DNA of 20,765 nucleotides, taken from IMG/VR virus record IMGVR_UViG_2703718852_000001; one strand, given 5' to 3'. Under the pieces are notes generated by a model. It was not told where the DNA came from. It saw only the letters and a program-made list of their open reading frames with translations, and did not search any database. The first letter of the stretch is position 1, and each line of letters starts with the position of its first letter. The position numbers were made by a program, and so were the translations under genes. Source of the stretch: a virus (lineage: Duplodnaviria > Heunggongvirae > Uroviricota > Caudoviricetes). Shown one piece after another: positions 14,821 to 16,882 of the stretch.

Positions 14821-15439
14821 GGAAGTCAACAAAAAGCAGCTGGCTGACATTTTCGGTGCGAGTATCCGTACCATTCAGAACTGGCAGGAACAGGGAATGC
14901 CCGTTCTGCGAGGCGGTGGCAAGGGTAATGAGGTGCTTTATGACTCTGCCGCCGTTATAAGATGGTATGCCGAAAGGGATGCTGAAATTGAGAACGAAAA
15001 GCTGCGCCGGGAAGTTGAAGAACTGCGGCAGGCCAGCGAGACAGATCTCCAGCCAGGGACTATTGAGTACGAACGCCATCGACTTACGCGTGCGCAGGCC
15101 GACGCACAGGAGCTGAAAAATGCCAGAGACTCCGCTGAAGTGGTGGAAACCGCATTCTGTACTTTCGTGCTGTCGCGGATCGCAGGTGAAATTGCCAGTA
15201 TTCTCGACGGGATCCCCCTGTCGGTGCAGCGGCGTTTTCCGGAACTGGAAAACCGACATGTTGATTTCCTGAAACGGGATATCATCAAAGCCATGAACAA
15301 AGCAGCCGCGCTGGATGAACTGATATCCGTGAGAACGACGACGGCACGTATGCCATCACCGCCGTGCAGCATGTACCGGAAAAAGAGGCCATCGTGGATA
15401 ACGGGGCGCACTTTGACGGCGACCAGAGCGGCACGGTAA
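14819..15439 (+). CDS. nohA: Terminase small subunit Nu1 homolog, C-terminally truncated and fused to out-of-frame J-derived sequence
   Basis: Track ORF 14819..15439. The first roughly 169 residues ([46 protein letters not shown]...KAAALDELI) match lambda Nu1 as I remember it; after ..DELI the ORF runs into unrelated residues, marking a deletion joint near 15326. Confidence 0.75.
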
Positions 15440-15969
15440 ATGGTGTCACGCCGCCAGCGGTGCAGCACCTGACCGCAGAAGTCACCGCAGACAGCGGGGA
15501 ATACCAGGTGCTGGCGCGCTGGGACACGCCGAAGGTGGTGAAGGGCGTGAGCTTCCTGCTTCGCCTGACCGTGGCAGCGGATGACGGCCGTGAGCGGCTG
15601 GTCAGCACGGCCCGGACGACGGAAACCACTTACCGCTTCACACAACTGGCTCTGGGGAACTACAGGCTGACAGTCCGGGCAGTAAATGCGTGGGGGCAGC
15701 AGGGCGATCCGGCGTCGGTATCGTTCCGGATTGCCGCACCGGCAGCGCCGTCGCGGATTGAGCTGACGCCGGGCTATTTTCAGATAACCGCCACGCCGCA
15801 TCTTGCGGTTTATGACCCGACGGTACAGTTTGAGTTCTGGTTCTCGGAAAAACGGATTGCGGATATCAGGCAGGTTGAAACCAGCGCGCGTTATCTTGGT
15901 ACGGCACTGTACTGGATAGCCGCCAGTAACCGCGCTGACAGACAATACGCAGGGGGCAGCAGGTCTTGA
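15328..15969 (+). pseudogene. Fragment of tail tip/host-specificity protein J (internal segment, no start)
   Basis: Frame open from 15319 (stop at 15316-15318); translation ..[29 protein letters not shown]...[61 protein letters not shown].. recognised as lambda J-like. Ends ..WIAAS then unrelated residues (second joint). Confidence 0.75.
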
Positions 15970-15979
15970 GTTATACGAG

Positions 15980-16882
15980 GTGTATAACAACGGATATCCA
16001 ACAGCGTATGGAAATATCATTCACCTGAAAGGGATGACAGCCGTTGGCGAAGGTGAGTTACTCATCGGCTGGAGTGGTACAAGCGGTGCTCATGCTCCGG
16101 CATTTATTCGTTCACGACGGGATACGACCGACGCAAACTGGTCGCCGTGGGCGCAGCTTTACACCTCGGCTCATCCTCCTGCAGAGTTTTATCCAGTCGG
16201 TGCACCAATCCCGTGGCCATCAGATACCGTTCCGTCTGGTTATGCCCTGATGCAGGGGCAGACTTTTGACAAATCTGCATACCCGAAACTTGCAGTTGCT
16301 TATCCGTCAGGCGTGATCCCTGATATGCGTGGCTGGACGATTAAGGGCAAGCCCGCCAGTGGTCGGGCCGTATTATCTCAGGAACAGGACGGCATTAAAT
16401 CGCACACCCACAGCGCCAGCGCATCCAGTACGGATTTGGGGACGAAAACCACATCGTCGTTTGATTACGGAACCAAATCCACGAATAACACCGGGGCGCA
16501 TACCCATAGTATTAGCGGGACCGCAAATAGTGCCGGTGCGCACCAACACAAGAGTTCCGGTGCATTTGGTGGCACGAACACGAGCATTTTCCCTAATGGT
16601 TATACCGCGATTTCAAATCTAAGCGCGGGGATTATGAGCACAACAAGCGGTAGTGGCCAGACTCGTAATGCAGGGAAGACATCATCAGATGGTGCTCATA
16701 CCCACTCGCTGTCCGGCACTGCTGCAAGCGCAGGCGCACATGCACATACTGTCGGTATTGGTGCTCATACGCACTCCGTTGCGATTGGTTCACATGGACA
16801 CACCATCACCGTTAACGCTGCTGGTAACGCGGAAAACACCGTCAAAAACATCGCATTTAACTATATTGTGAGGCTTGCATAA
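15980..16882 (+). CDS. stfQ: Side tail fibre protein, C-terminal portion (GTG start), 300 aa
   Basis: Track ORF 15980..16882. ..[37 protein letters not shown]...GAHTHS repeats...[24 protein letters not shown] matches the lambda Stf C-terminus as I remember it. In-frame TAG at 15917 limits upstream extension. Confidence 0.8.

Follow-up and report, generated by a model that had tools for sequence, protein, structure and literature searches.

A rare deletion allele of the Qin prophage of Escherichia coli and a recurrent TA endpoint in stf

The stretch of DNA analysed here (20,765 nucleotides, in the following called the window) comes from Escherichia coli and represents a lambdoid cryptic prophage of the Qin type, from int to attR. 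Its late region contains two deletion joints and is, very probably, the decayed packaging, head and tail part of the prophage, shaped by deletions that favour TA-centred sites similar to one found in stf. Taken alone, the two joints are ordinary prophage decay; the unexpected part is the second one, which is not randomly placed: its TA, at positions 15927-15928, is a preferred deletion endpoint across the Qin prophage family and is the same endpoint for at least 17 other distinct left partners in strains and metagenomes. Literature searches found no described hot spot in Qin or stf.

The assignment to Qin is based on the split ydfJ flanks together with relBE, hokD, cspB/F/I, ydfK, ynfO, ydfO, nohA, tfaQ and pinQ. 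Positions 1545-20765 match the Qin region as annotated in E. coli LR-58-1 (NZ_AP027553) with 100% identity, where the match includes ydfJ' and is bounded by dicB/relBE/cspB/cspI on one side and by ydfJ on the other. Positions 1-1547 and 16686-19493 correspond to int-xis and tfa-pin-att of the intact phage mEp460 with 99% identity, with the att boundary at about 19493. Alignment shows a third joint at 1545-1547, between xis (mEp460 position 26336) and early-region DNA, with the TAC of CGGATAC common to both parents. Neither the identity as Qin nor the recurrence of the second joint had been part of an earlier note on this DNA.

The left part of the late region starts with a cosN motif (GGGCGGCGACCT, exact match at 14630-14641, + strand) that is kept upstream of the Nu1 remnant, and 14630-15325 corresponds to lambda 1-697. 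When 14700-17500 was compared with lambda (NC_001416) by blastn, 14700-15325 aligned to lambda 71-697 (cos and Nu1) with 97.8% identity and 15324-15928 aligned to lambda 17229-17833 (J codons 575-777) with 95.5% identity. A three-line alignment shows that the two matches overlap by a TA at 15324-15325, where Nu1 nucleotide 697 is joined to J nucleotide 17229; lambda 698-17228 (16.5 kb) is absent. The same TA at Nu1 nucleotide 697 is joined straight to the stf site in a metagenome contig (L043).

The joint truncates an open reading frame of 206 amino acids for a small terminase subunit of the NohA/Nu1 type (14819-15439, + strand), recognised from the ORF list, from Pfam and by comparison with lambda Nu1: it consists of 169 Nu1 residues followed by 37 residues that are read out of frame from J. 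Phage_Nu1 (PF07471) covers residues 1-164 (E=3.6e-101) and includes the N-terminal winged helix-turn-helix, and residues 1-169 have few substitutions in comparison to lambda Nu1. The C-terminus is incomplete, as the last 12 residues (170-181) are swapped for the 37 unrelated ones; the C-terminal region of Nu1 is the part that contacts gpA, and this terminase partner is absent too, with gene A wholly deleted. In RefSeq, the chimera is annotated as 'terminase small subunit' (WP_167589907.1 in NZ_AP027553). The J fragment (15324-15928, + strand) is a pseudogene of 603 bp: of the full tail-tip protein, which has about 1,130 residues and a C-terminal receptor-binding part, it retains codons 575-777 only (domains Ig_J and Ig_J_second), in a frame that is open just from 15319 to 15969 and has GTG codons only, no ATG and no Shine-Dalgarno sequence.

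At the second joint, the J match ends at 15928 (J nucleotide 17833) and the match to stf of mEp460_ev081 (LR597641 21210-21802, 97.1% identity by blastn and alignment) starts at 15926; the overlap is GTA (15926-15928). The corresponding position in mEp460 is codon 706 of the 1023-codon stf, and the missing DNA of about 3.9 kb (mEp460 17274-21209) contained the last part of J, lom and the initial 706 codons of stf. The stfQ remnant (15926-16882, + strand, 97% identity to mEp460 stf from position 21210, annotated as pseudogene) has the Collar and Phage_fiber domains but not the N-terminal tail-attachment part; its frame is shut upstream by a TAG at 15917-15919 and the first possible start is a GTG at 15980. 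It is followed by an intact tail-fibre assembly gene, tfaQ (16882-17457, + strand, Caudo_TAP domain, WP_000885611.1), and, convergent with tfaQ, by the gene of a small serine recombinase, pinQ (17555-18145, - strand, Resolvase and HTH_7 domains). Thus, cos, a Nu1 reading frame without its last 12 residues, the J fragment and the receptor-binding end of stf remain from the late region, with both tfaQ and pinQ intact downstream of the deletion scars.

Two deletion joints, from Nu1 to mid-J and from J to the C-terminal part of stf, with a locus of roughly 20 kb in lambda reduced to about 1.6 kb, had been proposed in the earlier note from the DNA letters, and the alignments to lambda and mEp460 confirm this structure well beyond what chance could produce: the breakpoints map to 15324-15325 and 15926-15928, microhomologies of TA and GTA are present at the joints, and the losses measure 16.5 kb and 3.9 kb. 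Both are clean crossovers within a common TA with zero bases inserted or lost. Together with the TAC of the third joint, these microhomologies fit what is expected of illegitimate recombination, namely a clean junction with 1-10 nucleotides common to both parents and no homology beyond. The possibility that the region is one intact gene of another phage finds no match: none of 221 phage records with at least 80% coverage covers either joint, and no gene continuous across the joints was found in phage, E. coli, metagenome or viral collections. Other parts of the proposal need correction. The fragments had been described as in-frame, but Nu1 (frame 2), J (frame 1) and stf (frame 2) are in three unlinked frames, and because the frames differ and stops intervene there is no Nu1-J or J-Stf fusion protein; of the chimeras envisaged, the Nu1 domain with a novel tail of 37 residues is the one that exists, as a predicted reading frame. 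Likewise, C-terminal Stf sequence is indeed present, but it begins at 15926 rather than at the GTG at 15980, and it amounts to 318 of 1023 codons (31%) rather than to half of the protein. The phage function of the remnant reading frames is most likely lost, and the Nu1 chimera is the only one with a normal start context.

Among the closest known systems is the Qin prophage of K-12 (nohA - stfQ' - tfaQ - pinQ), which is 99.9-100% identical on both sides of the scar, has the same stf endpoint and shares the lysis and csp genes, ynfO, ydfO, cos, the Nu1 homologue, the stf C-terminus, tfaQ, pinQ and ydfK. In K-12, however, Nu1 nucleotide 719 is joined directly to stf, resulting in the 189-amino acid NohA, whereas in the window Nu1 is broken 22 nucleotides earlier (nucleotide 697) and the 603-bp J fragment is kept; the window also differs by an intact-looking int and by a different early-region deletion. 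The allele with two joints (Nu1-J-stf) is rare: it is present in 4 of 5,426 complete E. coli genomes, with identical structure in all four, versus 363 genomes with the K-12 joint. The DLP12 prophage of K-12 (nohD - aaaD' - tfaD) is similar in that a lambda-type packaging remnant is cleanly joined to a remnant of the tail-fibre region (A nucleotide 1018 to tfa nucleotide 22121, with TAT in common), but prophage and endpoints are different and its tfa endpoint is non-recurrent (one distinct joint in 171 loci). The undeleted order J-lom-stf-tfa-pin-att-int is found in mEp460_ev081 (LR597641) with 93-99% identity and with the hot-spot sequence intact in stf; this phage has a complete genome of 45.9 kb, and an HK97-type head module replaces the lambda Nu1/A genes.

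Head genes of both the lambda and the HK97 type, tail genes and lom are among the left partners of the stf TA. The joints are spread over at least three prophage backgrounds, with lambda-type heads, with HK97-type heads or with a ParB-type module, and over two alleles of the site. Among Qin alleles, the same stf position is joined to Nu1 719 in K-12, to A 955 in strain S3 and to U 8767 in NCCP12480; scans of right flanks identified further lambda partners (697, 3909, 6325, 6988, 8073 and 15277) and further mEp460 partners (3296, 5119, 8761, 12160, 13442 and 19033), and one more partner is a ParB-like gene. Endpoints close by in stf are found in DLI.5a (21178) and B-1109 (21256). In one contig (L184), the left side of the stf TA is kept and the deletion runs rightwards into tfa. 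Several partner sites are used repeatedly (Nu1-697, A-955, Z-8066 and mEp460-2811), and the 17 events may include some that followed one another and did not each start independently from an intact site.

Fifteen of the 17 left partners end in TA (background 3.1%, p=3e-21), and wherever the parents can be told apart at these positions, the joint has the left parent's base in front of the TA and the right parent's base behind it. TA is also the crossover point at 8 of 16 joints that do not involve the stf hot spot (p=4e-5), including the first and third joint of the window and the A-tfa joint of K-12 DLP12, while a control TA site in tfa has one distinct joint in 171 loci. The stf TA sits in the middle of a near-palindrome, CGGGTAACCG, and among 1,364 TA sites of two reference structural regions it alone fits CGGNTANCCG at all six positions. 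Partner sites have a mean of 2.96 matches to CGGNTANCCG versus 1.83 (a mean as high came up in 0 of 200,000 resamplings), a likeness that is also expected from microhomology or homeology, because the hot spot itself was the source of the palindrome consensus. A natural stf allele that carries TG at this position shows no joints in 22 loci in comparison to 19 joints in 102 loci for the TA alleles (Fisher p=0.017), a contrast that could reflect prophage lineage.

We suggest that the deletions arise by RecA-independent illegitimate recombination that would favour TA-centred sites like the stf palindrome, either by a conservative 2-bp exchange between a good site and pseudo-sites in the manner of serine recombinases, or by a site-specific break or replication arrest that is mended through 2-bp microhomology. 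The stf half of the site would outlive each event, and its survival would make the boundary reusable.

The break or arrest version is a tentative possibility. It holds that the stf site is fragile, because it is nicked in a sequence-specific manner, broken in both strands or a place where replication pauses, and that the fixed end is then joined upstream by microhomology-mediated end joining or by template switching, with the terminal TA as primer. In agreement, one end is fixed and the other variable, only deletions are observed, microhomologies are 1-9 nucleotides long and many partners have imperfect homology around the TA, for example GTCGGTTA in comparison to GTCGGGTA and TAACCGCG (gene Z); the near-misses at 21178, 21256 and 21196 point to a fragile stretch of some 80 bp. 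In E. coli, deletions are documented to cluster at terB, where replication is arrested and where one of their endpoints lies, and Qin is located in the terminus region of the chromosome. Bierne, Ehrlich and Michel reportedly observed in 1991 that these terB deletions are RecA-independent, with one defined endpoint and microhomology at the joint. The stf endpoints, however, are tighter than those at terB: they lie within 3 nucleotides in 17 of 17 hot-spot joints, even though resection of free ends by RecBCD should scatter them, and most joints have exactly 2 bp in common, although longer contiguous matches should be favoured. Another point against this version is that TA is enriched also at joints without the stf site. 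As judged by eye, there is no convincing Ter-like core at the site, nor any convincing likeness to Chi, KOPS, matS or a LexA box, and a strong hairpin is absent, as the site folds no better than shuffled sequence (z-score -0.64). A gyrase or topoisomerase IV site of the form G|NTAN|C is attractive, because removal of the 5'-linked base followed by annealing of the TA would reproduce the junction pattern; the published quinolone-type consensus is G/C-rich at the stagger, unlike NTAN, and we keep this idea as a weak variant of the break model.

The version with a serine recombinase is possible, but we regard it with some doubt. Here, the stf palindrome would be a crossover site or a strong pseudo-site for PinQ, or for PinR or PinE acting in trans, and rare conservative exchanges with a 2-bp (TA) stagger between it and pseudo-sites in direct orientation would excise the intervening DNA. 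The product of pinQ is a candidate enzyme: in every Qin-type variant examined, the gene is found in cis at a distance of 1.6 kb. Crossovers always within TA, with no base gained or lost, are the signature of an exchange with a two-nucleotide overlap, and the crossover is confined to an identical 2-bp overlap in 15 of 17 hot-spot joints, an outcome that joining through 2-bp microhomology gives as well. The two mismatched joints, U-8767 (TG) and B-3909 (CT), each retain the dinucleotide of one parent, as a heteroduplex would once replicated; the partners have a half-site-like similarity in which the base beside the TA is free, with GGNTA found in 6 of 15 versus 12% in the background (p=0.006) and no enrichment of contiguous GTA, and the stf site has been used from both sides (contig L184). 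Precedents exist: the use of quasi-sites by Cin of phage P1, matched at the central dinucleotide, is established, and both these and the Int-promoted deletions of lambda combine a fixed good site and variable pseudo-sites with an identical short crossover core. Unlike in these systems, the stf site lies within a structural gene and not at an att site or inversion boundary; it has no relation to the att core, and the joints lack the canonical invertase core.

PinQ may have a DNA specificity of its own, as it is only 38% identical to PinE of e14 and its helix-turn-helix is unlike that of the Hin/Gin/Pin type; its nearest solved relatives are Gin and gamma-delta resolvase. Sites of the Din family are defined by a length of 26 bp, an AAACC-NN-GGTTT core and an arrangement as inverted pairs that flank a segment beside the recombinase gene. 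The stf site is unlike this core of pix, hix and gix, and a search for canonical pix, which recovered the e14 pix as positive control, found the core at chance level in the window and at no joint. PinQ is reported to act on pix sites and to invert the P segment of e14 (PMC12529663), which argues against a role at joints that lack pix. Also against a recombinase, no partner site is found near pinQ: there is no second copy of the stf site, and no inverted repeats of at least 18 nucleotides or invertible segment beside PinQ in 80 loci. The stf site has 18 deletions and no inversion, although a palindromic TA core might predict inversions, and the DLP12 joint of K-12 has the same TA signature in a prophage without a pin gene. 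It is possible, although less likely than not, that the TA in CGGGTAACCG is a true site-specific target that is repeatedly joined to TA-centred pseudo-sites by PinQ, a relative or another sequence-specific enzyme.

It is highly unlikely that an IS element once inserted at the stf TA and that transposase-induced breaks, with or without an IS-excision enhancer, removed the element together with a variable flank. The geometry agrees (fixed end, variable end, short microhomology, no inversions), IS629 of EHEC is known for deletions of such form that depend on the IS-excision enhancer, and there are IS families that have TA as target or duplicate 2 bp. Yet no IS end adjoins the stf site in about 190 right-flank and 155 left-flank loci, which also speaks against adjacent deletion by an IS on either side, and the three backgrounds and two alleles would require repeated insertion at one dinucleotide, each time followed by complete loss. 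Searches for terminal inverted or direct repeats that could mark a mobile element found nothing above shuffle level. A secondary site of the integrase was rejected, with the att core (GAATTATGGATTTC) 3.5 kb away and unrelated to the joints, and so was a BstEII-like GGTNACC site, as the TAGCC allele lacks that site and still has joints at the same TA.

Hardly credible is chance followed by selection, with random endpoints and a boundary kept for the C-terminal Stf, Tfa and Pin, which might form a module for defence or for blocking a receptor, for example: the kept block starts where the receptor-binding part of Stf starts, tfaQ and pinQ are intact in the examined variants and an Stf-derived chimera of e14 is reported to block T2 adsorption, but selection on protein domains is unable to pin an endpoint to a single dinucleotide, the stf frame is shut by a stop upstream and has no better start than a poor GTG, extra stf should do no harm and yet left-shifted endpoints are rare, and endpoints do not recur at the control site, which belongs to the same block.

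As a rare allele of a well-known defective prophage, the structure with two joints matters little on its own. The loss of structural genes from prophages is commonly regarded as the outcome of random deletions on which selection then acts; at least 18 separate natural E. coli events at one dinucleotide suggest a sequence-directed process that decides which genes of a cryptic prophage are retained. In the present case, the genes kept are those for the tip of the tail fibre, for its chaperone and for a recombinase that has recently been connected with phage defence. If the stf TA were indeed the target of an enzyme, head and tail genes would be stripped while the block of Stf tip, Tfa and Pin is preserved, and prophage domestication would be partly predictable and enzyme-driven, in contrast to random decay. 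Such an enzyme would provide a testable model of how active prophages become 'grounded', and could reveal the natural DNA target of orphan recombinases of the PinQ/PinR class.

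The 20.8-kb window is an essentially complete lambdoid cryptic prophage of the Qin type from E. coli. Its positions 1545-20765 are 100% identical to the Qin region annotated in strain LR-58-1, which contains relBE, hokD, cspB/F/I, lysis genes, ynfO, ydfO, a gene for the terminase small subunit, a pseudogene related to J, another of a tail protein, tfaQ, pinQ, ydfK and, from the host, a truncated ydfJ. The intact phage mEp460_ev081 (LR597641) has 99% identity to positions 1-1547 (int plus a portion of xis) and to positions 16686-19493 (tfa, pin, ydfK, att). Pfam domains of the remnant region are Nu1, two J Ig-like domains, tail-collar and fibre repeats, Tfa and a resolvase-type recombinase; cosN is at 14630. 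The integrase ORF (431 aa, 20-1315, minus strand) is seemingly intact and shares 99% DNA identity with its counterpart in mEp460, an active phage; intQ of K-12 is a pseudogene. Given a truncated xis and a retained cos, helper functions may still be able to cut or mobilise the element. A third deletion joint, in addition to the two described below, lies at 1545-1547 and connects an N-terminal xis fragment (mEp460 26336) with DNA of the early region (position 2846 of the LR-58-1 locus); the parents share TAC, within CGGATAC. LR-58-1 retains exonuclease, ydfD and dicB at this position and the left side of the window thus represents a different Qin allele.

Alignment of positions 14700-17500 to lambda (NC_001416) and mEp460, with joints placed by three-line parent/product alignments, identifies the window as a rare allele of this known prophage, carrying two deletion scars, both clean, and a single predicted chimera of truncated Nu1. 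At 15324-15325, lambda Nu1 nucleotide 697 is fused to lambda J nucleotide 17229 with only TA common to the parents; at 15926-15928, J nucleotide 17833 is joined to codon 706 of 1023 in stf (mEp460 nucleotide 21210) with GTA in common. The first deletion removed 16.5 kb (from the end of Nu1 through A, every head gene and tail genes to mid-J), the second ~3.9 kb (the remainder of J, lom and two thirds of stf). The earlier note had proposed these joints, Nu1 to mid-J and J to C-terminal Stf; as the alignments place both and none of the phage records searched spans either with a continuous gene, this observation and its main interpretation are correct. The identical two-joint structure is present in only 4 of 5,426 complete E. 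coli genomes. The J fragment (15691-15702) and the stf remnant (15952-15963) share a 12-nucleotide direct repeat, GGGGGCAGCAGG, 261 nucleotides apart, which scores about as high as shuffled controls and is probably due to chance. The stf remnant has no counterpart in mEp460 stf at positions 16519-16685 and matches it again from 16686; this stretch is a mosaic patch in the His-rich repeat region of the fibre tip and includes, at 16602, the region's best, still weak, invertase-core-like sequence, ATACCGCGATTT.

The fragments are not fused in frame with one another, and of the suggested chimeric proteins only that with Nu1 is predicted. The Nu1 frame crosses the first joint into out-of-frame J and stops at 15439, predicting an ORF of 169 Nu1 and 37 new residues; it lacks the final 12 Nu1 residues, and the large-subunit gene is wholly deleted. 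The J frame is open solely at 15319-15969, has neither an ATG nor a ribosome-binding site and ends 13 codons into out-of-frame stf sequence. A stop codon (TAG, 15917-15919) interrupts the stf frame two codons ahead of the second joint, and the earliest possible start of the stf remnant is GTG 15980, which overlaps its sole Shine-Dalgarno-like GAGG. Because the frames differ or close in this way, one chimeric protein (truncated Nu1 plus tail) is plausible, rather than a series of in-frame fusions. The first 41 nucleotides of the stf remnant (15929-15969; ~3648-3689 of the K-12 locus) encode, out of frame, a 13-residue tail that is common to the J-frame ORF of the window and the 189-aa NohA of K-12, since both are fused at the same stf TA in the same relative frame.

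The two deletions are in themselves ordinary; the noteworthy result is that the J-stf joint is a strongly recurrent, sequence-dependent deletion endpoint. Six Qin alleles of complete genomes, including the one in the window, were aligned to the lambda and mEp460 references (stf positions are those of mEp460): K-12 has Nu1 719 fused to stf 21211, S3 has A 955 fused to stf 21205-21212, NCCP12480 has A 1647 fused to Z 8064 and U 8767 to stf 21206-21212, DLI.5a has A 1894 fused to stf 21178 and B-1109 has Nu1 293 fused to J 17118 and J 17879 to stf 21256. Four of the six end at the same stf TA (window 15927-15928) and the remaining two at most 46 nucleotides away. Among the ~1,100 complete E. coli genomes with this stf segment, the intact context is present in 686, the K-12 joint in 363 and another partner in roughly 50.

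Three collections were scanned with the 25-30 nucleotides immediately right of the site (61 loci from metagenome contigs, 67 from viral/prophage contigs and 35 of the sister allele TAGCC). Most loci have the intact stf context; the rest have further left partners joined at the identical position, namely lambda 697, 3909, 6325, 6988, 8073 and 15277, mEp460 3296, 5119, 8761, 12160, 13442 and 19033, and a ParB-like gene (a third module type), several of them recovered from independent data sets. Genome alleles included, there are at least 17 distinct left partners. In a single contig (L184), the sequence left of this TA is retained and the deletion extends rightward into tfa. A natural allele with TG replacing TA has no joints in 22 loci, versus 19 in 102 loci for TA alleles (p=0.017). 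The recurrence is no artefact of the search method, because a control TA site in tfa gave one distinct joint in 171 loci in the same scan. A literature search found no description of this endpoint.

Fifteen of the 17 left partners end in TA (background 3.1%; p=3e-21). Wherever the parents differ at these two flanking positions, the base 5' of TA is that of the left parent and the base 3' that of the right parent, with zero bases gained or lost at the hot-spot joints. Several partner sites were reused (Nu1-697, A-955, Z-8066, mEp460-2811). A near-palindrome, CGGGTAACCG, is centred on the stf site; of 1,364 TA sites in the reference structural regions, this site alone fits CGGNTANCCG at all six specified positions. 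Partner sites resemble CGGNTANCCG more than background TA sites do, but this is equally expected from homeology, as the consensus was derived from the stf site itself. Of the 16 joints outside the stf site, 8 have TA at the crossover, among them the Nu1-J joint, the joint at 1545-1547 and the A-tfa joint of K-12 DLP12.

Two mechanisms appear about equally probable. In the first, a good site and pseudo-sites undergo a conservative 2-bp exchange as made by serine recombinases; against it stand the absence of inversions and of a partner site: neither a second copy of the stf site nor a terminal repeat was found, and a search for canonical invertase sites was negative. The second starts from a site-specific break, or from replication arrest at the site, with repair via 2-bp microhomology; the nucleotide precision of the joints and the TA bias at unrelated joints are opposed to it, and no significant hairpin was found at the site. 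The recombinase of the window, PinQ (17555-18145, minus strand), has only 38% identity to PinE of e14, no inverted repeats of at least 18 nucleotides were found near it in 80 loci, and its recognition helix differs by eye from that of Hin, Gin and Pin, VSTLY(R/K). For these reasons, the reported inversion of the e14 P segment by PinQ at pix sites (PMC12529663) fits poorly with its sequence. Type II topoisomerase cleavage has no support from the published cleavage consensus, and both an IS element (no IS end adjoins the site in the scanned loci) and an integrase secondary site (the att core is unrelated) are disfavoured.

The joint of K-12 DLP12 (3160-3162 of its retrieved locus) is likewise a clean crossover at a TA-containing microhomology: terminase A (lambda 1018) is joined to tfa (lambda 22121) at TAT, adjoining TTCCGG. 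A bias towards TA may thus be a general feature of lambdoid prophage decay in E. coli.
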